Shown one piece after another: positions 31,772 to 64,000 of a stretch of 64,000 nucleotides of DNA. A model generated the notes under the pieces. That model was not told where the DNA came from, ran no database searches, and saw only the letters and a program-made list of their open reading frames with translations. This stretch comes from Orbicella franksi. Lineage: Eukaryota. The stretch spans positions 27,094,001-27,158,000 of the forward strand of contig OZ116699.1 of assembly GCA_964199315.1 (NCBI GenBank). The letters run 5' to 3'. The position numbers and the translations under genes are program-made. The stretch's first letter is position 1. Each line of letters begins with the position of its first letter.

Positions 31772-33204
31772 CGTTTCGATGTCATGTAATAACGAAAAAA
31801 CTTACAGCGACTAAAACAAAGCTTACTAAGGACAGCACGCCACCGAAGGGAAGTGCCTTTACAATGAATAATGGTGCATTTATACCTAGACATGATTATA
31901 GGTGTAACCAATAGAAAGCTGCCATGATCCAGATCATATTGTGATAAGACCAGACAATCTTTCGCAACACTTGACACAATAACGCATTCAAGGACCTCAC
32001 TCGATCTCTGCGGGTGCCATGCATAATTCGATAGCGTTCTTACATAGTTTTAACCATGTAAGAACGTTAACATTAATTGGGCACGCCGGAATACAATAAA
32101 CAACTGTTTCCGAGGTTTGCATGTCACGCTCCATTAACTGCGTTTTACTGCTTGTGCCGTAAAACTTTCTTATACAAATGAAAGGGTGATAGTGTCATAG
32201 AGTAAATTAGCATATCCAGTGTTGTACTTCACGCGTAAGCATGTTTAAAATGTTAAGTTAATACTTTTGCGCGGATAGAGTGAGATTGCGTGTTCAGGCT
32301 TGGCTTCTTCAATTTTATAGACAACAACGCAGTCGGACCACAATAATCAAGGCGATTTGTTGTGGAAAAGCCTGTGGGATAATGGATTCAGCTATAAAAC
32401 AGAAAGCCTTAAACCCTTGATTGATCAAGCCCCGCTAGAATCACAAGGCAACGTTTTTATAATTATAATAACCTCTTAACTACTATCCTTGGGTTTACTT
32501 TGCAGCTAATATGAGTTCTGGAAAACGTAGGAAACGCTGGCGTACCCCATCTACAATCAATAACAGATCGTCTGTAGGCGAGTTAACCACGGTGGTGTAG
32601 GCGAGATTGAACGTAGGCAACTTGACCGGATACCTTCCTTAACTGAAATAGAAGTGAGCTTCCAAGACTAAACTGATACGCTAGCTGTATTTTAACTTTT
32701 TGGGACTTTTAAAGTACCCAAAATTAGCCACACTGCAAAGCATCATTATCAGATATTTAGTAAACACGTCGGTGATTCATGCTTGCAAACGGAAATTTCC
32801 ATGCCCAACAGGTCAACAATCTGCAAAGAAAACCAGTTAATACGGACCTCTCGTATCGTGCTCTGTGATTGGTTGATGCATGCGACATGGTTGCATGGGT
32901 TGCAAGCATATGATTGGCTTATTTCGTCTGCGTAATATTAGCTCGGCTTTCTTCCTTGAACTTATTTCGGTAGCTTAGATTTGTGAGTGCTTGATCTTCG
33001 GAATTTCAAATTGCGTTATCTTCGGAATTTCAATTTCAATGTATAATACCTTACTACATTTGCTTCGTTATTCTTCGTTATTTGAGCTTGCTTTTTTACT
33101 GCACATATTGGTTTCGTTTTGACATTGCTTCGCTTCGCTTCGTTCTTTGTTCTTCGTTCTTCGCTTCGTTCTTAGACATTGCGTGGTTTCGTTGTAACAT
33201 TCCA

Positions 33205-36200: not shown

Positions 36201-39081
36201 TTAGCCATTGTTAATATTTTTTTCCATCTGGTTCTACATTTCAGAATAATGGTAGGATGAATTGAATAGATTTGTCCTTTCTCCGACTCCTTCCTTTCAA
36301 CAATACTAGCCCCGGTTTGGTTTGCCAATAAGGAAAATCGTCGATCTTGACTGATAACTTTCCACAGAGGAACAATAATACTATTATTGTGAATCCTTAT
36401 TATTATATTCACGATGGCTTGTTTCTTTATCTCAATATTAGGTGACTCCTACAAGCTGTTGAATTTGGTAAAATCCAAAGTTCTTGACATGGAAAAACTT
36501 CAAACCATGTCAAAAGAGGAATTAGATGATGTTGCAAGAAATTGTGGGATCAAAATCTCCAGTAAATCTGCTGTAAGTTTCCATTATTCGTGTTGTTATA
36601 TACGTTGCTATCTTTTCTAATAACTTCAGGAGTAACAAGCCTGTGCTCTATCAGCACCCGGGTGACAGGAAAAACATACCTAGTCGCCCCGCTGGGCGAC
36701 CTGCTTTTTGAGATTTAATTTAGAAATGAAAACAGCCTCATTAACTTTTCTTTCTCTTATTGATTTCTTGCATTGTAATGAAGATTACAAGGCAAAATTC
36801 AAAATGTTTAAATCCATCTGTGAAGTCAAAACATTGGACATTTAATGACTCAGTTTGATGCGTACGTTTCACACTGGGCTACAGTGATACGTACAGCAGT
36901 TTCCCTGTTAACTTCTTATCACTTCAAAAAGTCTTGTTAGCTCTTGTGGTTTTTTCAATGTGCATGAAAAGTCCCTTGTTGAAGGAAAATGTGAACTAAA
37001 TTATCAGAAGCGCATGCATAGAGGGAAAAGAGGGAATTGAAAAATGACTTACTTTTTCTACATATAATAACCATTTTAACTCAAAAAAATGTGTACATTT
37101 CGTCTTTCTTTGTGGACTTTTGCACACAGTATTACCAAAAATTACATGAGAATCTTTATATTAATAGGATAACTGGCCTAGAAACAATGCAAGACATTTT
37201 TATTTGATGGTCAGTTGGTTATCATATATTAATTGTTATTAGTTAATTATAAATAATGAATCAATTAATTAATTTTGAATTTTTTTTGGTTCAGGCTACC
37301 GAGCTTCACCTCTGGACACCCTAGCCTGCAAGGTTGGGTACCCAAAGGGCTCCCTAGAATTCATCTTACAGCACAGCCTTGAATAATAATTGACATTTAC
37401 ATTATCACAACTAGTAATTGTTTACAGAAAATAACGTCTATGTTTTTAGACGAAAGTCTATGTGTATATGAATTTTCTAGTTCGATAGGATTGTTAAATG
37501 TTACTAACTTTTGCAATCATTCTGACTACCTTCTTGAAATTAATTTTGAGGTGGTGCCAACCACACATCCTCTACAACTCTTATTTGGAAGATTTTTTCT
37601 AGTTTATGAAATAAGAAATGACATTCCTTGTCTTTTCAGACCAAATTACGTCTGGACATCCATGCTTTGTATGCGACTCTGTTGGTAGGGTTATGTCCAT
37701 GCCATGGCTACAACAAGTCACCTGGTAGAACTGGAGGATTTTATCACTTAGTTTGTCGACATGGAGTGAGTACATCTTGGTAATGTCAAGCAATTTGGCC
37801 ACCACAATTAGCGATTCCTATCAGCAATTTAAAAAAAAATTAGATCTGACAGACAGACAGAAAACCAGACAGATATGACACTTGAGTCGTGTCCTATAAT
37901 TTTAAGGTAGTTGTCATGTAACTTTATTGAATTACCAAAGGCATAATTCTATTGAAATATTCCTTTAGACAACTGTGGCCTCAAAGTTTTTGACATTGGC
38001 TGAATCTGTTAGGGATGCTGCTGATCTTTATTTGTCACTGAAGTATCCACCCCCCTGTGTTTATAAGTGATTCTCCTTGTGGATTTGCAAGACATATGGA
38101 GTGTCGTGTTCCTGATATCACTGATATTGTGTGGGGAGAAAACTATGGCTGTTTTGAAAAACCAGAGTTTGGAAGACATCCTAATGTAAGCATTTTGTCT
38201 ATATTTAATACGTCAACCTCTATTAAGCAGGCACCCCTGGGTCAACTTTATTTTAGGGTGTTCACCGCCTCTGTATGTTTGGATGAATTCCAAACTTACA
38301 GGTAATGGTTGTTTTCCTTGATGTGTATTTTTTAAAATCCAACATGATTGATTGAACCTACGAACGAATTAACGAACAAGTGATAATCTGATTTACCTTC
38401 AACCACTGGCCATACTCTATTTTAATTCTTCAGAATAACATTAACTGACACTGCGGGATGAAACCTATTTATTGTAAAACATAGATTCTCTTAACAGATG
38501 GCAAATATATATTGACACAAATTGTTTGCCAAATTCGTGAGAAAGGTAACAAAATGTTTCAGGAATCATATGTTTATATTTACATTTGTTCCCATTTGTT
38601 CCCATTTGTTTATGTCAGTACTTTCTTTCTCATGCAGTGCGATGTTGATGTTCCCTACATAGTCCCACAGGAATATAGAGACATGTCAAGGCAGTTGCAA
38701 AACCCAGACAACCTAGAGAGACTCCAGCATCCAGTAACCATGACAACACGGCACTATGTTCTGGGTGATCGTTTTCATAACAAATCCAATCCTCACAAGT
38801 CACCCTTGTGTGTTTACCACGACATTGACAAATGCCGACAAAGTTTAACAATTAAAACAAGTTATCAGGAAGTTGAGAACTCGCGCAAAAACCAGCGGCG
38901 TTTACGCAGTTCTTGTGCACAATCCTTTGGCACTCACTTCTTGTTTAATTATTTGATGGACTACTATCAGAATGAAGCAATAGTAGAACATCAACGATTA
39001 CGACTTGAGTCCATGCTGAAAGACAATGAAACAATTGCTCGGGATGTTTACAAACGTTTTGTAATTGTTAAGAAATTGTAA
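33205..39081 (+). CDS. KDZ/Zisupton-type transposase (HMGXB3-like), 8 exons, ~848 aa if one extra C is removed
   Basis: Exons 33205-34282, 34588-34724, 34924-35103, 35630-35864, 36442-36572, 37640-37765, 37969-38185, 38638-39081, all GT-AG with matching phases. N-terminal CxxC pair, two SWIM-like CxnC..CxH fingers, GLFNV, ICGICG, PPAFRGSVVFNTE, SAP-like LQTMSKEELDDVARNCGI, RTGG..CRHG, ESVRDAAD, FISDSPC, GDRFH. +1 frameshift in the C run at 38050-38055. Confidence 0.85.
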
Positions 39082-41360
39082 TCATCTTCATTTCACTAAG
39101 TAAATGCTGACTTCTGGTCCAGGAGATTTTAAAAGTTCTATAGTTTTCTAACATTCCAAAAGCCCACCCCGTTAACTTGCAAATAACTGCCCACAAGTAA
39201 TGGTCTGCTCGTGCGTAGTTTCATCTAAACAATATTATGCTCATGTGTGATTGAAATCACACTCTTGAATCCAATCTCAAGTGAAAAATGGAACCTTCCT
39301 TAGGTTTAAATATGAATACAAAACAACCTTGGTAATTGAATGACAAAATAACTATTGAACTTGCACATATTATGATTTGGTGTTCTCGCTGATTAATTGA
39401 TTTGGTCGAAATTGACAAACCATGATATTTTGCTCCACTTCCTCTAATAGTTAATTATTTTTCTTCTCACAGAATCGACTGCTGCTGGAATAATAGTATT
39501 TACTGTACAATAGACACTTCTGTCCTTATCTTGGTGTGTAGGGATTGCGATTTACATCCTGTATTTCGTAGACTTCCTTATAAAACCCGACAATATTAAT
39601 CATGTCGTCTTGTTATCAAGATTTCTACCTCTTTTTCAACTTGGAAAATAATTATTATTTTGAATTTTTGTTTTTTTGTTTTTTGGACTTTCTTCGTACC
39701 TTGTGTGCATTAAAAACTTGTCGACACGTAATATCACATATATTGCCAAGAGATACGTGGGTTATGCTGGCTCCTGAATTTTGGGGTCTGAGAATGACCT
39801 CTTCTCACAGATAATTTCAGTTGAGTTCTGCAGCATTCACTATTCTATATTCAAGATGTTGACTCCTGATTTACATGTTTGTGATGTACGTTTAATCAGT
39901 TGATTTCTGCATCATGCAATATCCTCTGACAATGATTCAGTGAGTTGTGATTTCTTCCTAAAAACCTTTTAGAAAATTTTAGTTGGTATAATTGCATGGG
40001 GATACAAAGCACAAGTTCTTTGCTATAGCTGGCATTTTTCTCATGGTTTTAACCTGACTTCTCATGGTCTAAAATATCCTGGCCACAATGAGTCGAGCTG
40101 GTTACTCGATGATACCCCCTGTGTCTTAGTGTGCAACTCTTTCAGCGAGGGAATGAAAATTTCCTACTGAAACTGAAACTTTTATTAGGGTGAAGTACTT
40201 GTCCAATGGGATTTCCACCTAAGACAACAGGTTAATGTCCTCTTGGGGAAGAGGAGGGGACTAGGAAACCAAAAATTATAAATAGAAAACCCCACATTGC
40301 TTTAATCCTTTCATCTTTATCGTCTATTATTAATCTATTTTGTTCTTTTCCCAGACAGTTTTTTTTTTTTTTTCCTCAAAGTTATTTGTTCAAAAACCAG
40401 TTCTCAATATAAGAAAAAGAAATTTACAAAGTGGCTTGAAGATATGAATTTTATTTTTGCATGTTGAATACAATATTTGAGAGAAAACAAGGGATTCTTC
40501 TGGTAAGAGGAAGAACACACTATGAAAACTGGTGGGATCATCTTTTTCTGTACACCTTTTTATTGACAATCAGGTAATTTGATAGTTTTTCTAAAAATTG
40601 TTGTTGCCTTCATGCTTGAAGTATTGTATATACAAAAGTTATCACTTAAAACTAGAATTATAGAATTAACATGTGCCAGACATATTGGGTATTACCCTTA
40701 CAATTTTCACATAACAATACTGTTCAAAATTAAGTTGATGATGGTTTTTTTTTTTAGGGGGTTTTTCCACTTCTTTACACCAATAAGAAAACTTCAATCC
40801 TGCAGCTATAACCACAGTTTCCTCAAGGGTCATTGCATTTATAGGGAATTTGATTCTAACATCATCATTCTATTTCTGAACAGAAGTATGATTTAAGATG
40901 AATGGCAGCAACAAGATTTTACGTATATTACTTTTTGATGTATATTTACTGAAGACACGTACACAATGGTTTTCCATGTTTTGATTTGGAGAGTTTCCAA
41001 AAATAGGAAACAGCATGAATAGATCAAAATTTATCTCGGTAAAGATAACCTTTTCCTGCAGAATGTTATTGTTCCTTGAAAACATGTTAAATTCAAACTG
41101 TGTATTTCACATACTGTTTTCAAATCAAAGGGTACAAGAATTATGTGACTGACCCCTTACGTTTTGATAACTGGTATTTTGGCCATCTCGGCTTGAGAGT
41201 AAAGCTTTAAATTACATATGTGGCTAACAATCGAACAGACTTTGAAAACAAAATAATAAACAACATGGGGCTCCAGACTCCTCAGCCAAACCCTCGGGCT
41301 GCAGCATCCAATCCCCCCTCCCTTTCCTCCCCCCTACCCTCTTCGGCACCCTCTGATAGA

Positions 41361-41899
41361 TTACTGCCTATCTTTGCACTTGGCACATTCCCAGTCTTCG
41401 TCTTCTTTGGGCATACTGTTGAGCCCAGAGCACAACCTGTACAAAAAAAGAAATTTACATTATTTAGATTATGTGTACAGTTTTATTATATGACCAGAAC
41501 ACAACAGAGGACTTGTAGCAAACATTTATAATAATAAATTGCTCTTCCCATTCCCAAAGCACTACTGGAAGGTAAAGAGGTTTTGATAACCAAAAAATTT
41601 GCATGGTTGTCCTTCGATCCCTCCGTGTACAACTTACTCTTTTTGGGGGGACAGAAGTACAGGAATTGGTGATGGTCTTATTCCTTTCACCTTCATCACT
41701 TATATAATAGTTATTTTTTTTTGGAGTGAAAACAAAATCTAAGTTGACAGTTGTTTGCTTGTCTTGAACATTACTTACAGGTGGAACCAGTCGTCACATG
41801 TGTCACACTGTACCCATTTTATTCCTTGTTTGGAACACTTCTTTTTGCTGCCAGGAGGTGTACTCAGCATACACAGTTTGCATGCATCGTCATTTGTCA
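41361..41899 (-). CDS. Two terminal exons encoding a complete PHD finger, probably the C terminus of the helicase gene
   Basis: Exons 41899-41779 and 41436-41361 join in phase 2 to give CKLC..WVQCDTCDDWFHLLCSGL..WECAKCKDRQ* (C4HC3). Linker exons between 44539 and 41899 only partly resolved (e.g. 43967-43906). Confidence 0.8.
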
Positions 41900-44538
41900 C
41901 TGTTTGAAAAAAGGCAGTTTACATAGAATCCCTATAAGTTTAAATTATTGTCCCTCAGTTCTATCATACATACAAGGAAGAGTGATTTGACTTTTTATTG
42001 ACTGACAATAATTATTATTCATGTTTGTTTTCCATAATGATTAAGCACATTGTATTTCTGAAACTTCACTGGTTTGTGGCTGGCACACTGGATGGGGCTG
42101 GAATCTTGCTTTGATGCGCATACACATGTGTTGTCAAACATCTAGTTGCACAAGCATGCTATGTAAGAGTTTGTGCAGTTCACATTGAAATTGTCACCCA
42201 GATATGCATGTAGAAATAAAATTGTAGAAATAAAATTGTAGAAAAATTTCTGGTCGACTAGCTACATAGCAAAATAGTTCAGTGCCCTCTAGTTGGTTCT
42301 GCATCACCACCTAATTTTGTAACTGTTTCAAATATACACACGAGGTCTGCATTTTGGACCATTTATTTCATCCACTTTTCCTATGTGACAAAATTACCTT
42401 TCCTTGTCTTCCTAACACCAACACAACCACTGACAGAGTGTTCAGATGCTGCTTTGGTTGCTCTGTCTTCTTCTATAGCTAAGTCCAAAAATAGATTTTA
42501 ATGTTAGTAACAAAAGCATTTAATTGTTGGAAGACTCAACACCAAGTATAGCCCAGGTGGATCAAGGGATCAAACCTTCAAATAAAAAGATGCGACCCTA
42601 TAAGCAATTATAACATGAGGATTTGGCCTCAGAATGCTGGTCCCTCAGGACCTCGATTTTAAAAAAATGTTCCTTGGAGGATGCATACAGCCTTCAGTGG
42701 TCCATATCTTAAACCCCCTTCTCTAGAATACTGTCTCTACCCCAGATAACCCAAAAAATTGTTGAAAGAGATAGAAAGATGTAAAACTCATTCAAAATTA
42801 TTGCCCATAGGTATTTCATATATAAACTTCTGTCAACTAGGTTCAGGTCATCCCTTGTTTTTGATACCATACCTGCAGAACTGTTTTACTACTTAAAGTG
42901 ATGACTGTTTATTTTAACCATCCAGCACCTGATAAAACTTGAGGCTCATCCATATCATTATCTCCACCCCAAATGCTACATTCGCCTGTATGAAGTGATC
43001 AAGTGTGCCATGTTATTCTTAGCAACGACTCAAAATAAAAGTAAATCACATTCAATTGACAACATTATCAACCAACATTACCAACTGTTTCATTACTGTC
43101 CAAGCTGATCCTGTGTTTGGCTCCTGCTGTATATCCCTATAATGAACGAATCAATAGCATAAAGAGTTTGTTACGAGTAAAGTACTTTGCACCAACTTCA
43201 TATTTACTTTACAATGTTACAGAAGATGTTAAGTCATTTCCTTTTAAAAGCATAAAAATATTGTGGATATATTTACCATTTCAAAAGCTTTCCTCCTCCT
43301 GGGAGTGAGGACGTTCATTGCCCTTTTTGATGTTCGAGTCATCTTTTAAAATTACATAAAAAAAAAAATGATTAAAAAAATTACATAACCTGTTGGTAAG
43401 CATTCAAGAATCTTTTAGACCTTTGAACTTAAATTTCCCCTAAATCAATATAGCACTTTGTAGATGCTAAATTGATTTGAGTGGAAGGTTTTTTCAACAC
43501 ATGTAATAAATATTGTATGCAGCAGAAATGTATACTGTGTGTGCAGATAAAGGCTTGGCACAATCACTGACTGCTCCAGCATGAAAATGGCACATAGGCA
43601 AAGAATGCCAACCTAAGAAATATGTCTCTCTTGAAACATCAAATACTTGATGAGACCCTTTGTTTGTTCCACTTAAAATCAATATTGGACTAAAATTGTC
43701 CTCATGAGGCAACAATAAATTTGAATGATATTATATAATTCACAGTAGTCTGTGATCCGGCAATCTTTTTTTTTTCCTGAGCATAAGTTTAGTTTACTAT
43801 ACATACTGTTTCATTGTGCCTTTCCTCTTGATGACTAGAGAATTTTAAATACATCCAACTAAATCATTCTGTAATGTTAAAACAACACTATTGTTTTTAA
43901 CTTACCAAACTGGTGGCTACTGGAGGATCATTTGCATCACAAGACTCATTGTCCGAGTCGGGGAAATCTGGGAAAAAAAGGTTTTTTTCACCTTAACGAA
44001 TACTCCGGGTAGTCAATTACTCTTTTTTTATAATCAGTCAACTAAGATCATAACTTAGAGTTACCTACCATTTGAGCAACCTGACCCTCATGACAACAAG
44101 TTATCCTGGTTTGAGCACATAGTCCAATCAAAAACCAGTACTTGAGCAGAGGATAACCCATAAAAACACTTTACCTCCAATGGTTCAAAACCTGAGCCTG
44201 CGATATGGTCGTGTGGTAGTGGGTGACAGGTGTCAGTTGACCATAGCAAGGCGTACTAATGGATGTAGGCTGTAAATCAAGGCTGCATGCCTTGGTCGAT
44301 TTATTACCTTTTAAAAGCATGGCTGCCATGTTCCATGAAGTCATCATCATAATCGTTTTGCGCAATCCACGCCGCTGGCCACATTGACCGTGTCTATGCA
44401 TGCATGTAGCTCTGTTTGGATAGTTGCAGCCTCCGCATGGCAGCCCATTTGGCCACCAGAGTTCAGTTATATTTGGTTACTAACTATGCTGACACTGAAA
44501 AAGCAAGACTTTTTGGTGTGCTCACCTACATACAGTAC

Positions 44539-47500
44539 CTGAGATTCGCAATGTTGGCAAGTCACAAGCCAAGGACAGGTAAACTGCTTTGACACTTTGC
44601 AGGTGATCCTCATGTAGAGGGCTGTTGAATTGAAGCTCTTCATCAGCTGAAGCTTCTTGTTCAGCAACTGTAGATTGAGTATTACTCTCCTCAGCATTGT
44701 CCTCAGCGTCACCACAAGCTGTGTAAAAAATCCACATCATCATTTCGTATGTCATGTTTCTCTGCGTCAAAATCAGTTTCTGTTCCCTTTTAACAACTTA
44801 CTCTTTGCAACAATATTCAGCATAGTCTGAGTAAAAAGGCTGGTTGGGAATTTAAGTGCCTTCTTGAATTTGTTTTCATTTGCCATTGTAGGTGCAAATG
44901 GGACTGATATGTTGACCACAGACTGTCCATGTTTCTTTGCCTCATCAGCCAACTCCTAAGTTTCAACAAAGAAAACATGGCATAAGGAATAATGCAGCAG
45001 TACTCTTAATATGTTACACATTTGGGGATCGTTGAAGGAAGTAATCATAATCATTAAGATTGATATAATTTTTAAGGGTAGAGGGGGATGCTTAAGAGTT
45101 AAGCATGTAGAAATTGTTTGTCTGCTAAATGATCAAATGATCAAATGCGTTTCTTCAAACTTGTAAGATTTGTATGTAATGGTGACTCACCTTTCTTCCA
45201 ATGTGCGGCCAGTTTACAAGCTGACTGGACTTTATCGCTAATCCCTTCACCATTGTTCCATTTTGGTTCACTTTTACTGTTAAGTTTAACCAGGTCTTTA
45301 CCTAAAGTAAATGTGGGTAATGTGGACTCTTCAATGTACAAGGTTGGATATTTCCTGCTTCAACATAAAATTGGTACGATTTGGATTACAATTGGTATCA
45401 AACTATAACTGTAAGAGTCCACAGATAAGTAACCACAAGAACTCAAAATTAGGAGTTCTGATTGTGACGTTTTTAGGATGATTTTGAAAATGCATCCAGA
45501 TTGCGCAAATTTCATACAACTCTACAAACAATTTACTTAATCATTTACGTAAGAATAATTATTTACCTTTGCTCTAGCATCTTGGTTTTTGCATTCTTGA
45601 ATAATTGTTTGTTCCAATTTTTCAAGAACACACTGTTCTCTTGCTGTTGCACACTCTTTGTAGTGCCCAACATATTGCTCCACCAGCTCAACCAATTGCT
45701 CTGCTTCAGGCAAGAGTCCACAACTCATGTAAAGCTGAACACCAAAAACAAAATCAGTGCTTGAGGTTCAGTATAGCAATGAGTTACAAAAAGAGTATAA
45801 CAGAAACACCAAAACAGGGACCACACTTTCAACAATCTTTCCGTCAGCAATTCAAAACTCACCATTGTGTGGACAAGAAGCACTGAGGCCACACCTTTGT
45901 ACCACCGTGCCTGCTGGCCAGAGATGGTAGTGATGAGAATGTCAATCAGTCGACCAAGCACGACACCCTCATGGAGAATGGTTTTCAAACAGTCTGTGTA
46001 TTTCATTGACCAAACTGTCAGGAGCCCCTTTAAAATGAATTACAACTTTAGTAACTTTTACAGTTTAATTTACCATATTACTAACATTAAGGATGGTGCA
46101 ATGTAACACTCATGTGACGAGGTCTTATAACAGTGACAAGAGTCCTCCTTAATAAGAAGAGCCTGTTCTGCATTAAGTCACAAGGAAAAAATGTTCAAAA
46201 GATGTCTTGAGTTACTGGTTTACATACCCTTATTGTAACTACATGTATATTTATTTATGTAACTATTTCTAAAAGTTATATCATTTAAAAATACACAGAC
46301 AAAAGCTGGATGAATAATAAAGCACTGACCATTTTGTTTGACTCTTCTTGTATTACCTCTGTAAATTTTTAGTAGTCTCTCTTCTGGAATTTTGGTCACT
46401 TAATATCTATTAGCGTACAAATACACACAAAATGCAGAGCTTTTTCACAAATGTTTACTCTTGGTTTTCCATCCACAAATTCGATTACTGCACTTGAGTG
46501 AGTTTCATTCATCAAAAACGGGACTTTTCCATTGCATAATCTTTGAGATCCTAAGACATGTTGGCTCATAGAACATAAAACATGTTACTCACCCTATTGC
46601 TACAGACAAGATCCATGAGTTCTTTTATGGCCTGTTCCTTGGTGGCTGAAAAGTTGTCATCTTTCTTGTACACAAAGTGTATAACCCTGCCACTTAATCT
46701 GTAAAATGTAAACTTAAGGTTTTTAACAGCTTTCAATTAATTTAATAAATACAGTTACTGTAATTTTTTGGGTTGTTTTATTTTGTTTGTTTCTTTGCAC
46801 TAAATAGTGGTGAATAAACTGTATATATATATTATTTTGGCCATTTGCTTGTTTGGGTCAATAGACCTGGTCAATCAAATGAATTGGTCATGGTAAGACA
46901 TTGATCATCAACATGGAAAGAACTTGGAAAGAAGAAAAAGAAAATTGCTATCTTTGATTCCATTCAACAATGTTGAAGAGAGAACTGATACTATATGATA
47001 ACATTATATCGCAGCTCCTGCAGTTCGAAGGTGTAAGAGTGGAGTTCATTAAATATCATACATGTGTAGCTTAGAAGATTTGTACATACATGTATATGCA
47101 TCGGGGATACATGTTATAATCAATTGACACATGTCAAAACAAGGTATTTGCTGACCAGTATCGAGTGACCATCTCATGGACTAATGTATAGCACTCATCA
47201 AGGTCACTTGCTTTGTGAAGTTGATTGCTTCCAAGGTACAGGTTTTCAACCTGGGTTTTCAATAAGATCGTAAGCTTGAGCCAGCTTATTTCACTGTAAT
47301 TAGGTAGTCTGCTTTTACGCTTGGCTAATTCTATATATCATCATGAATATGGTATGGTAATACTTAATCATAACTCTACCAACCTTTCATTTTCTTTTAC
47401 ATTTGATGTCAACAGGACACCTCCCAAAGGGGAATCAATGTCTGCTTGAGAAGAGCCCTGCATTAGACCACCTTGCACTTGCAAAAGGAATTCTGACAAA

Positions 47501-50500
47501 CTGTCACTCATCCTTACATCGTCGATGACAACAACAAATGTGGTCTTGGTCAATGCCTCCATTAATTTCTTTCTAAGAGGAAAGTAGACAGTGCCATATT
47601 ATGGGAATACATATTGAGGCAATGAATTAATAGTATTATTCATGCAAAACTAGAGAGGGAGATATTGCTATTTAATAATAGTCGTCACATTTATTATAAA
47701 ATTTAAAACAGAACAACATTATTATGCCAAACCTGTCATTTGTGTTCTATTATGGCTTTGTTTTTGTTTTACTGGGAACTAAAAACATTGTGTATGCAAG
47801 CTATACAACAAGCTCTGACTACCAGATTACACATAACTTATGATATCATGAAAAGAAATTAAATCAAATCCAGTCTTACGAAGAGACTCCAGACAGTACT
47901 TGATCACCACCTGCCAGAAGCTGGTTGTGTTTCACACCTGGAACACCCTGTGCAAAGGCCAACATCTTGGCAGAGAGTGATTTCCCCACTGATTTAACAG
48001 GGCTCAATACCATCCCCAAATTTGCTTGATCTATAATAATGAGTAAAATAAAAATTAATATACATGTATAAAGTGTCAATTGAAGACTAATATTGTAACA
48101 TTTGGTCTTCCAATAAACCTGGGCATATAATGTTAGCTTTGTTGTACATCGGTCTGACAATGACAAATAAACACAAACAGACTTGTTCTTTAAAAGGTTG
48201 AATTGCTTTTAAGTGGCCATTGAAGCTCACTCAATTTGAAGTGGGAAAATACACAAACAAAAAAAAATGGCCACAGGTTGAATCACTTTTAAGTGTCCAT
48301 TGCGGCACTCAATTTGAAGTTGAAAAAAACAACAACAAAATCTTATTGCCCATTCAAGTCTAACATCCAACATTTGCTGCAAACGAGACAATAATATAAC
48401 TGAGATACCTGCACTATCACAAGTTTGCCCTTTCTTCATGAGATGCTGGCAAATAAATGCAGCAGCTGCCAAAAAAGGTACTTTGTTAGGCCCCCAGCAA
48501 CTGGCAAGGGATATAAATCTGTAAAAGGGAGCAGTGTGAATGTGCTATTAGTATACCTACATGTCAAATGATTGACTATAAGAAGTACGTACATGTACCT
48601 CATAGATATCAGAGCCCTGAGAAATAGATAAAATGCACTGTCACATGCATAATCGAAGGGGTGCATGGAAAAAGACCTTAAGTGACTTCTGATGGACTGC
48701 ACTGTTCTCCTAACAAACTGCTTGTTGTTTCATTCTGTGAAAAAAAGGACAATTTGGTATAACATCAAGAGACACTTAAGGCTTTTTCCATGCACCCCTC
48801 CACTTATACACATTCTATCAATGTGGGATAGGACTAAATAAATCCTTCTAAGGGGTTTACTTGACCCAAAAATACTATTTTTGATATCCCACCTGCAAGG
48901 ATAATCCAAGTTATGTGAGGTGCATACACAAGAACAGGGCTCTTATCTAGTTCAGGAGGAGAGTACTAACAACACAAGCCAACAACATCTACCTTCTCAT
49001 AACATCACAGAGATATCCCTCTGACAGCAATTTTTTTTCGAGAGTGTTATGATAAAGTGTCAAATCCCTCCTGTCGGCGCATCTGTACTCCCTTTGTTCT
49101 TGTGGAACAAGCAAACAATTGTGTACTTGAATCTGCAATGATCAAGCAATACTAGGTTACAATCAAAATTTGTAATGTATCAATAATGATGATATCATTC
49201 ACCATATTATGAACATTTGAAATAATTATTATTCACAACTACATCGCTAAAATCAAGGTTGTGTGCTTGAGACATCCAGGAGCTTCTACTATTTCCAGCC
49301 AGCTACTAGATGAAGACTGCTCTCATGGCGGGCAAATCCTGGCAATCCAGCCATTACCCCCATGCAGTAGGATGAACAGCCACCTGTCACACTGTCAAAA
49401 ACAGTGGAAAGAGGGAGGGTAAGGCATTGGGGGGGAACTGCCTGGGCAATGAGCTGCCACACTAACGCAAATGTACAATGCCAAAAGAAACGCCTCCTCT
49501 GTGCAATGCTACAATCCATAAGCGTATATGTGTCGACACCGCTGACTACCAGGGATCGTAAGAGCTCTATGTTGTTAACTAAATAGCAATTAACTGTATT
49601 TAAAAACTAAAAGGATTATCCAATATTATTGGTCATTAGTAGGAGATAGTTCCAAAAACATTAGATGTTTTTAGCAGTCCATATATAAAAATTGCCACAT
49701 ATGAATGTAAGTTATGACAAACCTCTTCCGACAAGCACCAATAACCATCTCGTTGCAACCCAACGTGCACCATTAGGTTGCAGTGCTGTTGGTCACCAGC
49801 CTCAAAATCTCTCTTCAGATACTGGTAGTATTCCATCACATCTTTATTGGTGCAGGAAGGAAAGAGGCTAAATGTTCCACCCTGGAAGGCCTGCCTGAGG
49901 GCATTGATAAACTTTTGTTTCGAATCAAAACAACTGGTCGCCAATACTACCTCTCTGAAATTCAGCAAATATAGAACGTATTATATGTATTGATTTGACA
50001 AATTAGCCATGGGTGTATTTACGTGAAGGGGGGATTAGTGGATAGCGTGGCTACCAACCCCCCTTTTGGAGAGGAAAACAAGTGCAAAAAAGATCTTAAA
50101 TATTATATGACACAAAAGGCAGGCACTGTGCTGGACAGATACATGTACCTCATTGTAAATTCTAAAGTGACATTACTAAAATTCCTGGTGTTATAGTTTC
50201 CAGCTAGGTCACAATTCTCAAATTGCAACATTTTGTGGGCACGTCCTATTGAGTATCCAACTGCAAGGTACCACCCCGCCCTTTCGAAAAATCCTGCAGG
50301 GGCCCGTTTCTAGAAGGTCGCACGAAAGCCGTAACAACATCTCAAACCTTGTGATTACAAAGCTGTTTTTCCACATATTCTTAATACGCAAAAGAGTTTC
50401 GCAGCGTACAAGGAGTTTAAGGCGTAAACACTTCTCTGCTTTCAGATACAGATTAACTAAAATTGGCTTTGCGGCCCCAAAAAGGTCCCGGGGCAAACGG

Positions 50501-50754
50501 GGCCCTGGATCCACGGTCCCTGTTATTCGAGTAAACTATGACAGAATTTTTAAGTCAACGAGGTACAATACAATTTACCTTGACACATGTTGTCTGTTTA
50601 TAAGACAACCACACTGTCCAATCCAGTAGCCCTCGCTAGTGTGGCCAGTCAACTCTGAAACAAATCTCAAAGTGAAATCCCCAAACGTAAACTCCTCTTC
50701 AGCGTCTTCTCCGTAACTTAGGTAAGTTTTTCCTTCTCTGACTCTAAAGGCACC
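44539..50754 (-). CDS. Multi-exon SF3-helicase-like AAA+ ATPase (core of the helicase-PHD gene)
   Basis: Phase-consistent GT-AG exons 50754-50579, 49954-49723, 49132-48993, (48616-48599 optional microexon), 48518-48409, 48030-47880, 47572-47384, 46698-46593, 46027-45863, 45734-45567, 45301-45191, 44955-44802, 44718-44539 with no stop. Walker A-like SPVKSVGKS, Walker B VVVIDD, motif C LLTSN, then LSGRVIHF. Confidence 0.8.
48658..48798. repeat. 141-bp hairpin/MITE-like insert in an intron of the helicase gene
   Basis: GGGGTGCATGGAAAAAGACCTTAAGTG versus CACTTAAGGCTTTTTCCATGCACCCC. Confidence 0.75.
50299..50505. mobile_element. MITE (Harbinger-like) in a helicase intron
   Basis: Termini GGGGCCCGTTT / AAACGGGGCCC. 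Confidence 0.6.
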
Positions 50755-51329
50755 CTGAAACTTATGCAGTAGGAAATGTGTTCAGCTTCTTGCTCAACAC
50801 CATATGGTCGCTCTTTAATACACGCCTTCCCCACGTACAGAATTCGTTTTTCCCCAGTATTTTCGACCGTCCTACTTCGCCCAGGTTGCAAACTCAGCCC
50901 CAGGGTATCTGGTGTTGTGCGGTCATCCATGATGGCCGTAACGCGCGCGCGAGTCGCGCGCCGCAATCGCTTCGCCTACCTCGCGGTGAACCAACAAGAC
51001 CTAGACAGGCTGGGCGATTCTAGATCTCGCATTCCGTCACTCACCGGTTCACAAATGTAATATCTGACCGTGAACAACCGTGAAACATAACAACCGTGAA
51101 CCATAAAAACGCCTAAATGTTTAACGGCATTTAGCGTGCAGTTTCTGGAAAGTAACACAAGAAGACCATCTCCCAGTCCCACTAAAACCCTACTGAGACT
51201 AAGAAAGATTCTTCACGCAGAACTCTCTGACCTCTCTCCGTTGCACTATAGTCTATAGCTCAACAGAAACGTCTTCAACATTGCTTGAGATCCAAAGATA
51301 GAGATAGATTGAAATCTGTTCAGACTTAC

Positions 51330-51374
51330 CACGTCCTGGCTAATACGAAGTGAGTCGTCCATGCTGCTCGCCAT
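51330..51374 (-). CDS. Candidate first coding exon of the helicase-PHD gene (MASSMDDSLRISQDV)
   Basis: ATG at 51374, 15 codons, consensus GTAAGT donor, phase 0 compatible with the exon starting at 50754; further small exons may intervene. Confidence 0.5.
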
Positions 51375-51839
51375 GCTGTCCGGCACTAAAATAAACGCTA
51401 CACCGCTCGCTTTGTGAAAGGGTAATTGTTTGCTTGGGCACCTACTGATTCATTACACAATTATAACAAACCTTTGATTGTTTCTCGTAATAAGATCTGT
51501 AGAGTGTTTCCGATTTCGGGTGATTGACGGATAGCGTACGGTGTGCCGCCATGGAGAAGAGTGCTCTTTTGTGAGAAACTATTACTTCTCAAGAAAATTT
51601 TCCTGGTACCGTGGAATGTGCTTTTTAGATGGGCCAATGAAATTTTCAGCCATATGCAGTTCGATTGCAATCTATGTGAATGATTTGATAAACAATGAGA
51701 CTGTCATTTTGCACACACCCTCAATTTAAAAGCTGTGACACCCGAGAAACTTGGTACCGGATATACTTATTTCCATGCCAGCAGCTACATAGCGAGAGTA
51801 TTGTATTCTTAATCCTTTCTCTTATTAATACTGGTAAAT

Positions 51840-52655
51840 ATGATGTCCGTGTTTCCATTCCTTCCGTTGGAACTATTTCTGCACATTTTTGACTATGTCG
51901 CATTCAGAGAAAGATTCAAGTTACGGATTGTTTGTCAAAGCTGGAACCGATTGCTGATTCATCCAGTTCTGCTGCAGCATTTGGATTTTAGTCGTTTAAG
52001 AGGAAAGAAATTGATGCGCGAACTCCGTGCATGTTTTAATCACACCACCCAAGTATTCTCCCTGGACCTGTCGGGTTGCCTCACGCGTTGCGTTTTTTTG
52101 CGGACTCTCTCAGATGGAAAATTGACCAATCTGAAGCGCCTTATCGTGGCCCATAGCTGGATAGATACTGAAATTATGATTACAATGTTGCAGAGAACGC
52201 GTTGTCTCCAGGAGCTGGACATGACAGACGTCAGCACGATTAAGGACGACGTTTGCGAAGTCATAACTAAGTTCGCTTCCCATTCTGTTAAAGTCTTTTA
52301 CCTCCCAGGGCGCCTCTCATTCTGGTCACATACACGAATTTCACGCATGCTTGACAGCTGCCAAGAGCTGGTCACATTAGGAGTGGATGGCGATATGGTT
52401 GATGCTCAGTTCATTGGGGACATTTTTAACGGCCTAGAAGTGAAGAAACTTCGCAAGCTAAGACTGACGGATGTTAAGGACGCCTACGTCATCAAGGTGC
52501 TGCGAACCATACATTCCAACCACTCAAGTAGGATAGAACTGTGCGTCTGTCGCTGCCCTTATTTAAGGACGGAAACTACAGAACTGTTGAGTAACTTAAG
52601 CATTCCTTTGTGCTCACAGTGTAAATATGACATCTCAACGTTTTCTTGGAAATAG
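51840..52655 (+). CDS. Intronless F-box protein with degenerate leucine-rich repeats, 271 aa
   Basis: F-box LPLELFLHIFDYV..LRIVCQSWNRL followed by LxxLDLS / LKRLIV / LQELDM / LRKLRL repeats. Confidence 0.85.
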   Translation: MMSVFPFLPLELFLHIFDYVAFRERFKLRIVCQSWNRLLIHPVLLQHLDFSRLRGKKLMRELRACFNHTTQVFSLDLSGCLTRCVFLRTLSDGKLTNLKRLIVAHSWIDTEIMITMLQRTRCLQELDMTDVSTIKDDVCEVITKFASHSVKVFYLPGRLSFWSHTRISRMLDSCQELVTLGVDGDMVDAQFIGDIFNGLEVKKLRKLRLTDVKDAYVIKVLRTIHSNHSSRIELCVCRCPYLRTETTELLSNLSIPLCSQCKYDISTFSWK

Positions 52656-52878
52656 AAAGGAATCGGCGCACGCCAAGAGAACTCTTTGTCATTCGCCTTA
52701 TAAATGTCTTTTGCTGCTGCATTTTATTGTCATTTTATGTCCAAAATTTAATACGGCCACCCCGTTAATACAGCCACGTTTTTGTGACCTGTTGATGACC
52801 GGATTAACGATGTTCCACTGTGCTTACAACGCAGGCGTCCCAAACTCACGATTCCACGAATAGATCAAATATTACCCC

Positions 52879-55800
52879 CGCAACCCTCACAACCCTCGCA
52901 ACCCTCACAACCCTCGCAACCCCCACAACCCTGAAAACCCTGACAACCCCCACAAACCTGACAACCTCCACAACCCTCACGATCCTCGCAACCCTGACAA
53001 CCCTGACAAACCTGGCAACCCTCGCAACCCTCACAACCCTCACAACCCCGACAACCCCGACAACCCTCACAACCCCCACAACCCCGACAACCCTGACAAC
53101 CCTCGCAACCCTCGCAACCCTGACAACCCTCGCAACCCCCACAACCCCGACAACCCTGACAACCTCCACAACCCTCGCAACCCTCGCAACCCTGACAACC
53201 CTCGCAACCCCCACAACCCCGACAACCCTGACAACCCTGACAACCCCGACAACCCCGACAACCCTGACAACCTCCACAACCCTCACAACCCCAACAACCC
53301 CAACAACCCCAACAACCCTGACAACCCCAACAACCCCGACAACCCCGACAACCCTCACAACCCCGACAACCCACACAACCCTCACAACCCACACAACCCT
53401 CACAACCCTCACAACCCCGACAACCCTCGCAACCCCGACAACCCTGACAACCCTCACAACCCCGACAACCCTGACAACCCTCACAACCCCGACAACCCCG
53501 ACAACCCCGACAACCCTCACAACCCACACAACCCTCACAACCCTCACAACCCACACAACCCTCACAACCCTCGCAACCCCGACAACCCCGACAACCCCGA
53601 CAACCCTCACAACCCCGACAACCCTGACAACCCTCACAACCCACACAACCCTCACAACCCTCACAACCCCGACAACCCACACAACCCTCACAACCCTCGC
53701 AACCCCGACAACCCCGACAACCCCGACAACCCCGACAACCCTCACAACCCCGACAACCCCGACAACCCTCACAACCCACACAACCCTCACAACCCTCACA
53801 ACCCCGACAACCCACACAACCCTCACAACCCTCGCAACCCCGACAACCCTCACAACCCTCGCAACCCCCACAACCCCGACAACCCTGACAACCTCCACAA
53901 CCCTCGCAACCCTCGCAACCCTGACAACCCTCGCAACCCCCACAACCCCGACAACCCTGACAACCCTGACAACCCCGACAACCCCGACAACCCTGACAAC
54001 CTCCACAACCCTCACAACCCCAACAACCCCAACAACCCCAACAACCCTGACAACCCCGACAACCCTCACAACCCCGACAACCCACACAACCCTCACAACC
54101 CACACAACCCTCACAACCCTCACAACCCCGACAACCCTCGCAACCCCGACAACCCTGACAACCCTCACAACCCCGACAACCCTGACAACCCTCACAACCC
54201 CGACAACCCCGACAACCCCGACAACCCTCACAACCCACACAACCCTCACAACCCTCACAACCCACACAACCCTCACAACCCTCGCAACCCCGACAACCCC
54301 GACAACCCCGACAACCCCGACAACCCTGACAACCCTGACAACCCTGACAACCCTCACAACCCCGACAACCCTCACAACCCACACAACCCTCACAACCCCG
54401 ACAACCCACACAACCCTCACAACCCCGACAACCCTCACAACCCACACAACCCTCACAACCCCGACAACCCTCACAACCCTCACAACCCTCACAACCCCGA
54501 CAACCCTCACAACCCCGACAACCCTCACAACCCACACAACCCTCACAACCCTCACAACCCACACAACCCTCGCAACCCCGACAACCCCGACAACCCCGAC
54601 AACCCCGACAACCCCGACAACCCTGACAACCCTGACAACCCTGACAACCCTCACAACCCCGACAACCCTCACAACCCACACAACCCTCACAACCCCGACA
54701 ACCCTGACAACCCTCACAACCCCGACAACCCTCACAACCCAGACAACCCTCACAACCCCGACAACCCACACAACCCTCACAACCCCGACAACCCTCACAA
54801 CCCACACAACCCTCACAACCCCGACAACCCTCACAACCCTCACAACCCTCACAACCCCGACAACCCTCACAACCCTCACAACCCTCACAACCCCGACAAC
54901 CCTCACAACCCACACAACCCTCACAACCCCGACAACCCACACAACCCTCACAACCCCGACAACCCCGACAACCCTGACAACCCTCACAACCCTCACAACC
55001 CTCACAACCCCGACAACCCTCACAACCCTCACAACCCTCACAACCCTCACAACCCCGACAACCCTCACAACCCTCACAACCCTCACAACCCCGACAACCC
55101 ACACAACCCTCACAACCCCGACAACCCTCACAACCCACACAACCCTCACAACCCCGACAACCCACACAACCCTCACAACCCCGACAACCCTCACAACCCA
55201 CACAACCCTCACAACCCCGACAACCCTCACAACCCTCACAACCCTCACAACCCCGACAACCCTCACAACCCTCACAACCCTCACAACCCCGACAACCCTC
55301 ACAACCCTCACAACCCTCACAACCCCGACAACCCTCACAACCCACACAACCCTCACAACCCCGACAACCCTCACAACCCACACAACCCTCACAACCCCGA
55401 CAACCCTCACAACCCACACAACCCTCACAACCCCGACAACCCTCACAACCCTCACAACCCTCACAACCCCGACAACCCTCACAACCCACACAACCCTCAC
55501 AACCCCGACAACCCACACAACCCTCACAACCCTCACAACCCCGACAACCCTCACAACCCTCACAACCCTCACAACCCCGACAACCCCGACAACCCTGACA
55601 ACCCTGATAACCCTCACAACCCTCACAACCCCGACAACCCTCACAACCCACACAACCCTCACAACCCCGACAACCCACACAACCCTCACAACCCTCACAA
55701 CCCCGACAACCCTCACAACCCTCACAACCCTCACAACCCCGACAACCCCGACAACCCCGACAACCCTGACAACCCTCACAACCCTCACAACCCTCACAAC

Positions 55801-58548
55801 CCCGACAACCCTCACAACCCACACAACCCTCACAACCCCGACAACCCTCACAACCCACACAACCCTCACAACCCCGACAACCCTCACAACCCTCACAACC
55901 CTCACAACCCCGACAACCCTCACAACCCTCACAACCCACACAACCCTCACAACCCCGACAACCCTCACAACCGTCACAACCCTCACAACCCCGACAACCC
56001 TCACAACCCTCACAACCCACACAACCCTCACAACCCCGACAACCCTCACAACCCTCACAACCCTCACAACCCCGACAACCCTCACAACCCTCACAACCCA
56101 CACAACCCTCACAACCCCGACAACCCCGACAACCCCGACAACCCTGACAACCCTGACAACCCTCACAACCCTCACAACCCCGACAACCCTCACAACCCAC
56201 ACAACCCTCACAACCCCGACAACCCACACAACCCTCACAACCCCGACAACCCTCACAACCCTCACAACCCTCACAACCCCGACAACCCTCACAACCCACA
56301 CAACCCTCACAACCCCGACAACCCTCACAACCCACACAACCCTCACAACCCCGACAACCCTCACAACCCACACAACCCTCACAACCCCGACAACCCTCAC
56401 AACCCTCACAACCCTGACAACCCCGACAACCCTCACAACCCTCACAACCCTCACAACCCTCACAACCCCGACAACCCTCACAACCCTCACAACCCTCACA
56501 ACCCCGACAACCCTCACAACCCACACAACCCTCACAACCCCGACAACCCTCACAACCCACACAACCCTCACAACCCCGACAACCCTCACAACCCTCACAA
56601 CCCTCACAACCCCGACAACCCTCACAACCCACACAACCCTCACAACCCCGACAAACCTCACAACCCTCACAACCCCGACAACCCTCACAACCCACACAAC
56701 CCTCACAACCCCGACAACCCTCACAACCCTCACAACCCTCACAACCCTCACAACCGTCACAACCCTCACAACCCCGACAACCCTCACAACCCACACAACC
56801 CTCACAACCCCGACAACCCTCACAACCCACACAACCCTCACAACCCCGACAACCCTCACAACCCTCACAACCCTCACAACCCTCACAACCCCGACAACCC
56901 TCACAACCCACACAACCCTCACAACCCCGACAACCCTCACAACCCCCACAACCCTCACAACCCCGACAACCCTCACAACCCTCACAACCCTCACAACCCT
57001 CACAACCCCGACAACCCTCACAACCCACACAACCCTCACAACCCCGACAACCCTCACAACCCTCACAACCCTCACAACCCCGACAACCCTCACAACCCTC
57101 ACAACCCCGACAACCCTCACAACCCACACAACCCTCACAACCCCGACAACCCACACAACCCTCACAACCCCGACAACCCTCACAACCCTCACAACCCTCA
57201 CAACCCTCACAACCCCGACAACCCACACAACCCTCACAACCCCGACAACCCTCACAACCCACACAACCCTCACAACCCCGACAACCCTCACAACCCACAC
57301 AACCCTCACAACCCCGACAACCCTCACAACCCTCACAACCCTCACAACCCTCACAACCCCGACAACCCTCACAACCCACACAACCCTCACAACCCCGACA
57401 ACCCTCACAACCCTCACAACCCTCACAACCCCGACAACCCTCACAACCCTCACAACCCTCACAACCCTCACAACCCCGACAACCCTCACAACCCACACAA
57501 CCCTCACAACCCCGACAACCCTCACAACGCACACAACCCTCACAACCCCGACAACCCTCACAACCCTCACAACCCTCACAACCCCGACAACCCTCACAAC
57601 CCACACAACCCTCACAACCCCGACAACCCTCACAACCCTCACAACCCCGACAACCCTCACAACCCACACAACCCTCACAACCCCGACAACCCTCACAACC
57701 CTCACAACCCCGACAACCCTCACAACCCACACAACCCTCACAACCCCGACAACCCACACAACCCTCACAACCCCGACAACCCTCACAACCCTCGCAACCC
57801 CGACAACCCACACAACCCTCACACCCCCGACAACCCTCACAACCCTCACAACCCTCGCAACCCCGACAACCCTCACAACCCTCACAACCCCGACAACCCT
57901 CACAACCCTCACAACCCTCACAACCCCGACAACCCTCACAACCCACACAACCCTCACAACCCCGACAACCCTCACAACCCACACAACCCTCACAACCCCG
58001 ACAACCCTCACAACCCTCACAACCCTCACAACCCCGACAACCCTCACAACCCCGACAACCCCAACAACCCCAAGAACCCCGACAACCCTGACAACCCCAA
58101 CAACCCCGACAACCCTGACAACCCCGACAACCCTGACAACCCCAACAACCCCGACAACCCTGACAACCCCAACAACCCCGACAACCCTGACAACCCAAAC
58201 AACCCCGACAACCCTGACAACCCCAACAACCCCGACAACCCTGACAACCCCAACAACCCCGACAACCCTGACAACCCTGACAACCCTGACAACCCCGACA
58301 ACCCTCACAACCCCGACAACCCTCGCAACCCCGACAACCCCGACAACCCTCACAACCCCGACAACCCCAACAACCCCGACAACCCTGACAACCCCAACAA
58401 CCCCGACAACCCCAACAACCCCGACAACCCTGACAACCTCCACAACCCTCACAACCCCAGGAACCCTGACAACCCTGACAACCCTGACAACCCTGACAAC
58501 CCCCACAACCCTCACAACCCCGACAACACTCACAACCCTCACAACCCA
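52879..58548. repeat. 9-bp minisatellite, about 630 units, consensus ACAACCC(T/C/A)(C/G)
   Basis: Directly visible; variant units CTC, CCG, CAC, CTG, CCA; the three ~1900-aa ORFs in the track are translations of this array. Confidence 0.98.
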
Positions 58549-58905
58549 TAAATTAGGTTTTAATAATCACCAATTACAACAGATTTTGTTTCTGCAGCCA
58601 CAATAAGTAGAAGATGTTGCAGTTTTCACGTCAGCCAATCAGATAGCTCGTTCCGAGAGGTGCGTACTGCCTCAAGAAAACAAGGAAGCCTCATTTTTCC
58701 GTGTAAAGAATCAGTTACTTTGTCCGATACTGAAATCGCTGGTTTTGACTGTCAAGTCAAAATAAGTATGATGGTAACCATTCAGTGAGTTAGGCCAGGA
58801 ATGTGATATGGGATAGATGACTGATATATAAACAACCTCGCCAAGAATTTAGTCTCTTCAATTTTTTATACTTGAGTTATTCGGAGAAACATTGATCCTA
58901 ATTTA

Positions 58906-62080: not shown

Positions 62081-62389
62081 ATTAGGTGAGCGAAAAAAAA
62101 ATAGTGTGACTTGTTTGGAATTGCTTGGGCAAACCGTTGTTTTTTTATTCCTTATTCCTTTTTTCGTGACGACTCCCTACCTCGCGCGCGCTCATGTTTG
62201 TCGCCGATTTGTTTCTGCCCACGCGACGCCGCTCAAATATAAACGAAGGCGGGCCATTCACTAATTTGGGGTATTGTTCTGCAGTTGAAAAGCTCATAAA
62301 TTTTATCAATGATACTTGCATAAATAGCCTCGTAAACGCAAGCCATAATCACTTTAGACAATCCCTGATTGAGAGAAGAGCTAAGGAAA

Positions 62390-63073: not shown

Positions 63074-63401
63074 ACAACAGTGACCTACCGCTGGGTAGTC
63101 ACTTAAACAAACGGCTCCTTTAGGAGCCACCAAATATAAGAAAGCATTGACCAACTCGAGTGTGTGATACTTTTCTATTTCTCTTTTCTGGTCCTTTTTT
63201 GTATTCATTAAATTATTTGCCTTAAAAAAAAGCTCAGCATTCAATCCACCTCGATTTGTCTTCACGTGGTATCGCCTGCATAAAAAGTTTTATTTCAGAC
63301 GCGCTCACTAAGAATCTTTGGTTATAGCGTGAAAGGAATAAACAGCGACAGGTGAATGTAACACTGAGTAATTACCAATAAATTTTCGAAATGATACGTA
63401 C

Positions 63402-63821: not shown

Positions 63822-64000
63822 TGCCTAGAAAACTTTTTTTTCGACGATCTAAACACGAGCGAAATGGTTGTTGTCAAGTGACAATAGCGAAATGATTGTT
63901 GTCAAGCACGCGTCTCTATAACCATTTACCTCATTAGAATAACTAGAACTCAATGACCATTCATGACAACAAGAAAACAATGGTGTCAACTAAGCGCGAA

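Follow-up and report, generated by a model that had tools for sequence, protein, structure and literature searches.

A predicted Cch-like helicase gene with a PHD finger in a probable KDZ/Zisupton-type transposon of the coral Orbicella franksi

Cch of SCCmec (PDB 5DGK) and Rep of SaPIbov1 (PDB 8TCH) are initiator helicases, linked with each other and with DUF927 (PMC7581432), that are encoded by mobile elements and have no fused primase. This type has been placed in superfamily 6 (SF6) and described as binding its origin through a C-terminal winged helix and unwinding DNA in the 3'-to-5' direction (PMC9371898), whereas DUF927 is listed among the putative superfamily 3 (SF3) groups (PMC4889955), so that the superfamily label is debated. 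Here we describe a gene in a 64,000-nucleotide stretch of the Orbicella franksi genome (assembly GCA_964199315.1, contig OZ116699.1, positions 27,094,001 to 27,158,000 of the forward strand; hereafter the window) whose predicted protein finds its best structural match in these helicases, over the N-terminal, ATPase and C-terminal domains, and which shares with them both its location on a mobile element and the lack of a fused primase. It differs from Cch and SaPIbov1 Rep in being eukaryotic, with 19 introns, in showing 9-13% identity and no Pfam DUF927 match, and in the addition of an acidic linker and a PHD finger. The partner enzyme also differs, being a putative DDE-type transposase for the coral gene and a serine or tyrosine recombinase for the bacterial ones.

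The element that carries the gene is best compared with Kyakuja-Dileera-Zisupton (KDZ) transposons. It has terminal inverted repeats (TIRs) and an 8-bp target-site duplication (TSD), as do Zisupton and Dileera (PMC12730594), a multi-exonic transposase (PMC9297572), and the giant size and accessory genes known from KDZ elements (PMC12477816), here with weak CxC4-like signals; an association with F-box genes has been noted for fish Zisupton (PMC12062965). What sets it apart is the separate Cch-like helicase-PHD gene. AcademH and KolobokH are likewise eukaryotic DNA transposons that encode a helicase, of the DEAD/Helicase_C type (SF2; PMC10799480), whereas the coral one is a predicted ring-type AAA+ protein. 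Giant KDZ elements with cargo (PMC12477816) and DDE elements with SF2 helicases (PMC10799480) are already known; in the available portions of the literature, with Repbase outside the search, we found no helicase-KDZ link and no DUF927- or Cch-type helicase described in a eukaryote or a KDZ element. New here is a near-intact, expressed and recently inserted copy with exact ends.

The spliced helicase-PHD gene

The exon model was built from splice-site enumeration, the mapping of four RNA runs labelled coral, and protein records. Its 20 exons (Table 1) join into 814 codons and a stop, open throughout and with GT-AG borders at 19/19 introns, much as the initial annotation, made from the sequence alone, had proposed for its many short exons. 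The four motifs named there all lie on the minus strand (SPVKSVGKS at 48004, VVVIDD at 47535, LLTSN at 47415 and GRVIHF at 46691). The protein comprises an N-terminal domain, an AAA+ ATPase, a predicted winged-helix-type C-terminal domain, an acidic linker and a PHD finger.

The 15 RNA joints listed, out of 23, all agree with the model, at introns 2, 3 and 7-19. Contigs of run X1 support 15/15 of them and X4 13/15; raw polyA reads of run X23 cross 8/15 with 1-6 reads per joint, and X21 supports 0/15. Thirteen consecutive RNA-supported junctions connect the exon with Walker B, by way of the linker, to the final exon of the PHD finger, no single record spanning them all; because this chain is unbroken, the ATPase and PHD exons are one gene, a link that had previously been inferred. 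Introns 4-6 are backed by two independent protein records, the Logan contig protein P0003, which covers exons 2-16, and RefSeq XP_020606337, which covers exons 3-20 and shows 6 differences from the model in 701 residues. The same gene is already in RefSeq, as LOC110045082 of Orbicella faveolata, annotated as uncharacterized.

Exon 1 is likely to be real, judging from a strong donor, an in-frame ATG and relatives with similar N-termini; the gene of a second family of the element, described below, also has a phase-0 acceptor at this point, as here, and a short candidate first exon. Weighing against it, RNA depth is 0 over 51108-51800 in all four runs, and the RefSeq protein begins at Met114, without the first 113 residues. 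RNA contigs seem to continue some 120-130 bases beyond the acceptor of exon 2 (50754-50885), upstream into predicted intron 1, which suggests a transcript start or a retained intron. Elsewhere in the gene, exon 17 (42985-42929) is missing from RefSeq isoform X2 through alternative splicing, and three short intronic stretches (42692-42725, 47110-47172 and 48650-48701), where reads are very deep and end loosely, are small repeats common to other loci. Three candidate exons (48892-48861, 48733-48678 and 48616-48599) were left out of the model, since the protein records splice exon 4 straight to 48518, as were linker candidates at 44269-44175 and 46167-46074, both bypassed by RNA joints.

Predicted fold of the ATPase and the PHD finger

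Searched against Pfam, PHROGs and the PDB, the ATPase sequence gave nothing recognisable, and the PHD finger alone was recognised by sequence libraries. The family surfaced through an exhaustive HMMER search, which returned 249 proteins at E <= 0.001, many of them PHD-only or single-exon matches; word-based searches found close records only. Among 10 long relatives looked up, eight come from Sanderia, Exaiptasia, Dendronephthya and Clytia, and these scyphozoan, anemone, soft-coral and hydrozoan proteins keep the catalytic motifs at 19-38% identity. Conservation was counted in an 18-sequence alignment, the denominators here and in Table 1 being the relatives that cover each site. In exon 7 the Walker B D/N-D/E is kept in 17/17, the sensor-1 Asn in 18/18 and R348 in 16/18. 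Arg352 of the GR motif in exon 8 is likely to be the arginine finger, and the conserved R424 of the lid helix may possibly act as sensor-2.

A model predicted by AlphaFold from a 68-row alignment, derived from an 80-row version by dropping rows that included 9 poorly aligned fragments, reached a mean confidence (predicted local distance difference test, pLDDT) of 83.5; it was used in place of a single-sequence model of P0003, discarded at pLDDT 36. Foldseek ranks Cch first (5DGK, E 3e-8), followed by SaPIbov1 Rep (8TCH, E 1e-7). In VIA-align, model residues 7-539 superpose on residues 54-556 of Cch with Z 22.2 (362 aligned, root-mean-square deviation (rmsd) 6.2), and residues 1-548 on 61-567 of SaPIbov1 Rep with Z 20.2 (407 aligned, rmsd 10.3). 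The lower matches are MCMs at Z 11.9-14.9, SaPI5 PriRep at 11.3, D5 at 10.2 and E1 at 8.4. The three-domain layout of Cch, with an N-terminal domain, an MCM-like AAA+ domain and a C-terminal winged helix, fits the predicted model at rmsd 6-10, and it is this structural alignment from which the predicted winged-helix label of the C-terminal domain derives. Proteins labelled toprim and DUF927 head the matches in a viral structure library, where they are phage proteins, and the top structural row of the ESM atlas is named DUF927, consistent with Foldseek and VIA-align. A three-copy complex prediction for residues 90-420 scored 0.00, which is uninformative either way.

The predicted fold is of the Cch/SaPIbov1-Rep (DUF927, MCM-like) type and not classical SF3, the class to which the gene had first been assigned. 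SF3 proteins such as poxvirus D5/E5, papillomavirus E1 and SaPI5 PriRep do have Walker A, Walker B and the sensor-1 Asn in similar order, and their fold matches are significant but weaker (Z 8-11), covering the ATPase region only and ranking below Cch, SaPIbov1 Rep and at least 10 MCM entries. The spacing on which the SF3 label had been based is present, with K251, D302-D303 and N342 within about 100 residues, but it is common to other AAA+ clades and so undiagnostic. The fold search thus bears out an AAA+ helicase-type fold while moving it outside classical SF3, with no accompanying DUF927 sequence match.

The PHD finger passes the Pfam cut-off (E 2.3e-6) and has all eight C4HC3 ligands (C756, C759, C781, C784, H789, C792, C807 and C810), as had been read from the two distal exons. 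Its closest PDB sequence matches are the PHD fingers of KDM5A and TAF3. Trp778 and Trp787 align, by sequence and with equivalence taken from their spacing, with the two Trp residues of KDM5A PHD3, whose cage is formed by W1625 and W1635 (PMC7613515). The finger is therefore likely, on sequence grounds, to read chromatin carrying trimethylated histone H3 lysine 4 (H3K4me3).

The transposon and the recurrence of its gene pair

The gene lies within a complete DNA transposon (family 1; Table 1), in agreement with the earlier suggestion of a mobile element. Its TIRs match at 33/45 positions, imperfectly at the tips, a level that 0/200,000 random pairs reached (maximum 26). Both ends are defined by comparison with other copies in unrelated surroundings, 3 of which have the left end and 2 the full right end; the left-end copies all start at the base equivalent to 32834. 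About 70 kb away, at C2:27,057,171-178, an empty paralogous site has the left and right flanks joined over a single AAGAAAAC, and the right flank is 98% identical to this paralogue over 514 bp. Because both flanks meet over that single copy, the 25,840-bp unit was inserted, and recently; an insertion so young is not an old fixed host locus. Two deletion derivatives, 8,252 and 4,685 bp long, share the ends of the full element and retain the satellite, each being flanked by a perfect 8-bp duplication of its own. An 8-bp TSD is present in 3/3 family-1 copies with both ends and in the 1/1 family-2 copy with both ends; for the copy at C10:465,572 no right end was found within the 40 kb examined.

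The transposon carries two transcribed, spliced genes, convergently arranged. The transposase gene is supported by exon homology to other copies and by the spliced contig L125. At a C-run near 38052 the window has one extra C that shifts the frame; since 2/2 independent contigs, one of them spliced, have one C fewer and remain in frame, the shift is either a mistake in the assembly or a private lesion. The ESM atlas gave a CxC4 cluster at 0.92, a recognition under the bar, and a KDZ cluster at 0.79; Pfam CxC4 matched one exon below cut-off (E 0.008); and the KDZ core PF18758 matched no single transposase exon, 0/20 of its genome matches falling at this locus. The motifs GDGN, CRHG, RDAADL, SDSPC, DRFH and YQE, which we take to be KDZ motifs, are mostly common to the family-2 copies. 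KDZ membership rests on the TIRs and 8-bp TSD, on the weak CxC4 signals and on these presumed motifs. Elsewhere in the genome PF18758 directly matches other KDZ families, with 14 matches over cut-off. Contig L125 skips transposase exon 6 (37640-37765) by alternative splicing. Contig L126 extends from exon 7 of the transposase gene as far as 41345, and one helicase RNA contig passes 41000, so the 3' ends of the two genes probably overlap as antisense transcripts (39081-41361). The F-box gene, also inside the transposon, is divergent from the helicase gene. No capsid, polymerase, primase or virion gene was found inside the transposon.

The pairing of transposase and helicase recurs. A decayed copy at C10:7.41 Mb, about 85-89% identical, has pieces of both genes in the same order. 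A family-2 element at C1:16,026,383-16,055,938, about 30% identical, has its own TIRs (24/45) and its own 8-bp duplication. Its transposase is convergent with helicase and PHD exons, and the corresponding end carries a 9-bp satellite of another sequence; neither the Walker B exon nor the F-box gene was found in it. The left end of family 2 recurs inside this element as a 43-bp copy (95%) beside the satellite (C1 about 16,031,255-16,031,297), and a second family-2 copy is at C10:8.21-8.27 Mb. Partner, orientation and several intron positions are common to both families. Of at least 6 helicase loci in the genome, 4/6 have transposase sequence in convergent layout; the other two are single exons, one of them 7 kb from a transposase on the same strand and the other next to the end of an element. 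RAG1/RAG2-type transposons have a layout resembling that of the coral element, with convergent intron-containing genes for a DDE transposase and a partner bearing an H3K4me3-type PHD finger; the partner there is a kelch propeller and here an ATPase, and no homology is implied.

Table 1. Positions of the transposon, its genes and their conserved parts in the window
Feature	Position	Strand	Details
DNA transposon, family 1, probably KDZ/Zisupton-type, complete	32834..58673		25,840 bp; ends, TSD, empty site
Left TSD, AAGAAAAC	32826..32833	+	
Right TSD, AAGAAAAC	58674..58681	+	perfect 8-bp match to left
Left imperfect TIR	32834..32878	+	33/45 identical to right TIR
Right imperfect TIR	58629..58673	-	inverted copy of left TIR
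CxC4/KDZ-like transposase gene	33205..39081	+	cysteine-rich, intron-rich, about 8 exons; convergent with helicase gene
Transposase exons 1-4	33205-34282, 34588-34724, 34924-35103, 35630-35864	+	
Transposase exons 5-8	36442-36572, 37640-37765, 37969-38185, 38638-39081	+	
Helicase-PHD gene	41361..51374	-	20 exons, 814 residues; spliced model and fold match
Helicase exons 1-5	51374-51330, 50754-50579, 49954-49723, 49132-48993, 48518-48409	-	
Helicase exons 6-10	48030-47880, 47572-47384, 46698-46593, 46027-45863, 45734-45567	-	
Helicase exons 11-15	45301-45191, 44955-44802, 44718-44539, 43967-43906, 43342-43277	-	
Helicase exons 16-20	43136-43082, 42985-42929, 42478-42398, 41899-41779, 41436-41361	-	
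Predicted coding exon 1	51330..51374	-	sequence-based; unseen in RNA
Exon 6, Walker A (S-x5-GKS, K251)	47880..48030	-	G and K invariant 13/13
Exon 7, Walker B (D302-D303), hairpin insert, sensor-1 N342, R348	47384..47572	-	
Exon 8, GR motif	46593..46698	-	G 18/18, R 16/17
Exon 9, lid helix with conserved R424	45863..46027	-	R 16/17
C4HC3 PHD finger with W778 and W787, exons 19-20	41361..41899	-	Pfam; exon junction in RNA
F-box gene, intronless	51840..52655	+	271 residues; Pfam F-box-like E 9e-8
Subterminal satellite, 9-bp units, commonest CAACCCTCA and CAACCCCGA	52874..58547	+	5.7-kb array

Possible roles of the helicase

Why should a eukaryotic DNA transposon carry such a motor? We know of no need for a ring helicase among eukaryotic cut-and-paste transposons; to our knowledge, helicases reported so far from DDE elements belong to SF2, and Cch-type helicases have been characterised only in bacterial islands and phages. 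That the gene is an element-borne, Cch-like gene we regard as nearly certain, and its product is probably an active ring ATPase/helicase. Whether it acts on its own element in an initiator-like way is evenly balanced. As an overall explanation we favour, with some confidence, an initiator-type helicase, encoded by the element and joined to a reader of H3K4me3, that would help the element to copy or move.

By analogy with Cch and SaPI Rep (PMC9371898, PMC7581432), the helicase protein would form an ATP-driven ring, presumably a hexamer, that unwinds the element's own DNA 3'-to-5' and so aids copying or mobilisation; its C-terminal domain would bind short repeats. For this binding the candidate site is the subterminal 9-bp array, because it is kept in both non-autonomous copies and is independently present in family 2. 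The PHD finger would tether the helicase to H3K4me3 chromatin, cleavage and joining at the TIRs would fall to the convergent KDZ-like transposase, and any DNA synthesis would rely on host enzymes, since the element yielded neither a primase nor a polymerase.

The following observations weigh against this explanation. The Walker A motif departs from the canonical spacing of the first Gly, the final residue of Walker B is here an Asp, and Pfam DUF927 (PF06048) has no match in the protein records P0002 and P0003, in 13 relatives or in the genome. The PHD finger was seen in 4/13 relatives scanned, 3 of them under the Pfam cut-off, many relatives being partial. Copy number is low (4 left ends and 3 full right ends in family 1), unlike that of an efficient self-replicator; the F-box gene shows that such elements also carry passengers; and arrays can persist merely through closeness to an end. 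Helicase exons were found at only 5/18 transposase-bearing regions, most of the others being partial: the flanks of the other 13, about 13-34 kb downstream, yielded none, and the region at C7:11.637 Mb, which keeps most transposase exons, shows no helicase over the following 34 kb or so. In favour of the explanation, the ratio of non-synonymous to synonymous substitution rates (dN/dS), measured against decayed copies, is 0.37 for the helicase (95% interval 0.24-0.56, 292 codons) and 0.25 for the transposase (0.14-0.42), which is in line with the purifying selection earlier suggested; in the one block compared, however, exons are no more similar than introns to the decayed copy (88.6% vs 88.9%), and that pair therefore gives only modest evidence of selection.

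An extension of the initiator-type explanation, rather unlikely as it stands, is a new class of self-copying animal DNA transposons, in which the helicase would load on the 9-bp array as on an iteron origin and recruit host primase and polymerase to replicate the element, or the form of it that has been excised, while the PHD finger works in active chromatin; this would be an old lineage across Cnidaria and probably other marine animals. Also rather unlikely is a target-capture motor of the kind for which MuB, TnsC and IstB provide model roles: the AAA+ ring would bind target DNA at H3K4me3 chromatin through the PHD finger and deliver it to the transposase, the element remaining uncopied. The two-Trp cage of H3K4me3 type and the presence of a PHD finger in the family-2 copy suit such a motor, as does the lack of any primase or polymerase found in the element, and the TIRs, 8-bp duplication and low copy number are those of plain cut-and-paste. 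Yet the predicted fold retains all three domains of the Cch initiator helicase, neither non-autonomous copy has lost the subterminal array, family 2 has such an array as well, and the insertions are too few to show a promoter bias.

It is improbable that the helicase is a passenger, cargo like the F-box gene or the fungal TET/JBP genes, or a domesticated gene serving the host, with no role in transposition. Accessory genes are frequent in KDZ elements (PMC12477816, PMC12730594), a single intact copy, spliced and expressed, was found, and helicase exons went undetected in 13/18 transposase regions. Partner, orientation and several intron positions nevertheless recur in two families that are about 30% identical, which the F-box gene does not; the insertion is young, its right flank 98% identical to the empty paralogue; and the closest folds are those of mobile-element helicases. 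An endogenous virus or Polinton-like remnant with an SF3/D5 helicase, in keeping with the initial virus-like label, is very improbable and largely refuted by the limits of the element: phage and giant-virus proteins do occur among the fold matches, but the polymerase-like fragments at 23800-30800 fall outside the TSD-bounded, DDE-type transposon, no capsid, virion, primase or polymerase gene was found inside it, viral contigs gave 1 pattern match with 0 confirmed and phage records no relative, SF3 structures rank below Cch and MCM, and the gene has 19 introns.

Beyond the transposon, the window holds a single 666-residue open frame with a tyrosinase domain (9998-11995, minus strand, Pfam E 1e-37) and a decayed long terminal repeat retrotransposon (15955-20479), whose 118-bp direct repeats, 91% identical, enclose broken open reading frames (ORFs) that we take to be reverse transcriptase and integrase. 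A unit of about 2.7 kb is present in three tandem copies at 23143-31243 (98.6-99.3% identity); fragments in it resemble a family-B DNA polymerase, judging by a DTDS motif, and gave no Pfam match. To the right of the transposon lie a chromodomain ORF (62369-63070, plus strand, Pfam E 4e-10) and a coiled-coil ORF (63375-63824, minus strand), and from about 3.4 kb beyond the window end there is a satellite that is built of 63/123-bp units and spans at least 16 kb.

Finally, an intact helicase gene in a TSD-bounded, transcribed and recently inserted element, together with an empty site, offers direct access to the question of how transposons as large as about 26 kb move or multiply. The locus shows a prokaryote-type replication motor, as predicted from its fold, acquiring introns and a putative histone reader, and 'uncharacterized PHD proteins' in cnidarian annotations can be re-labelled as probable transposon genes.

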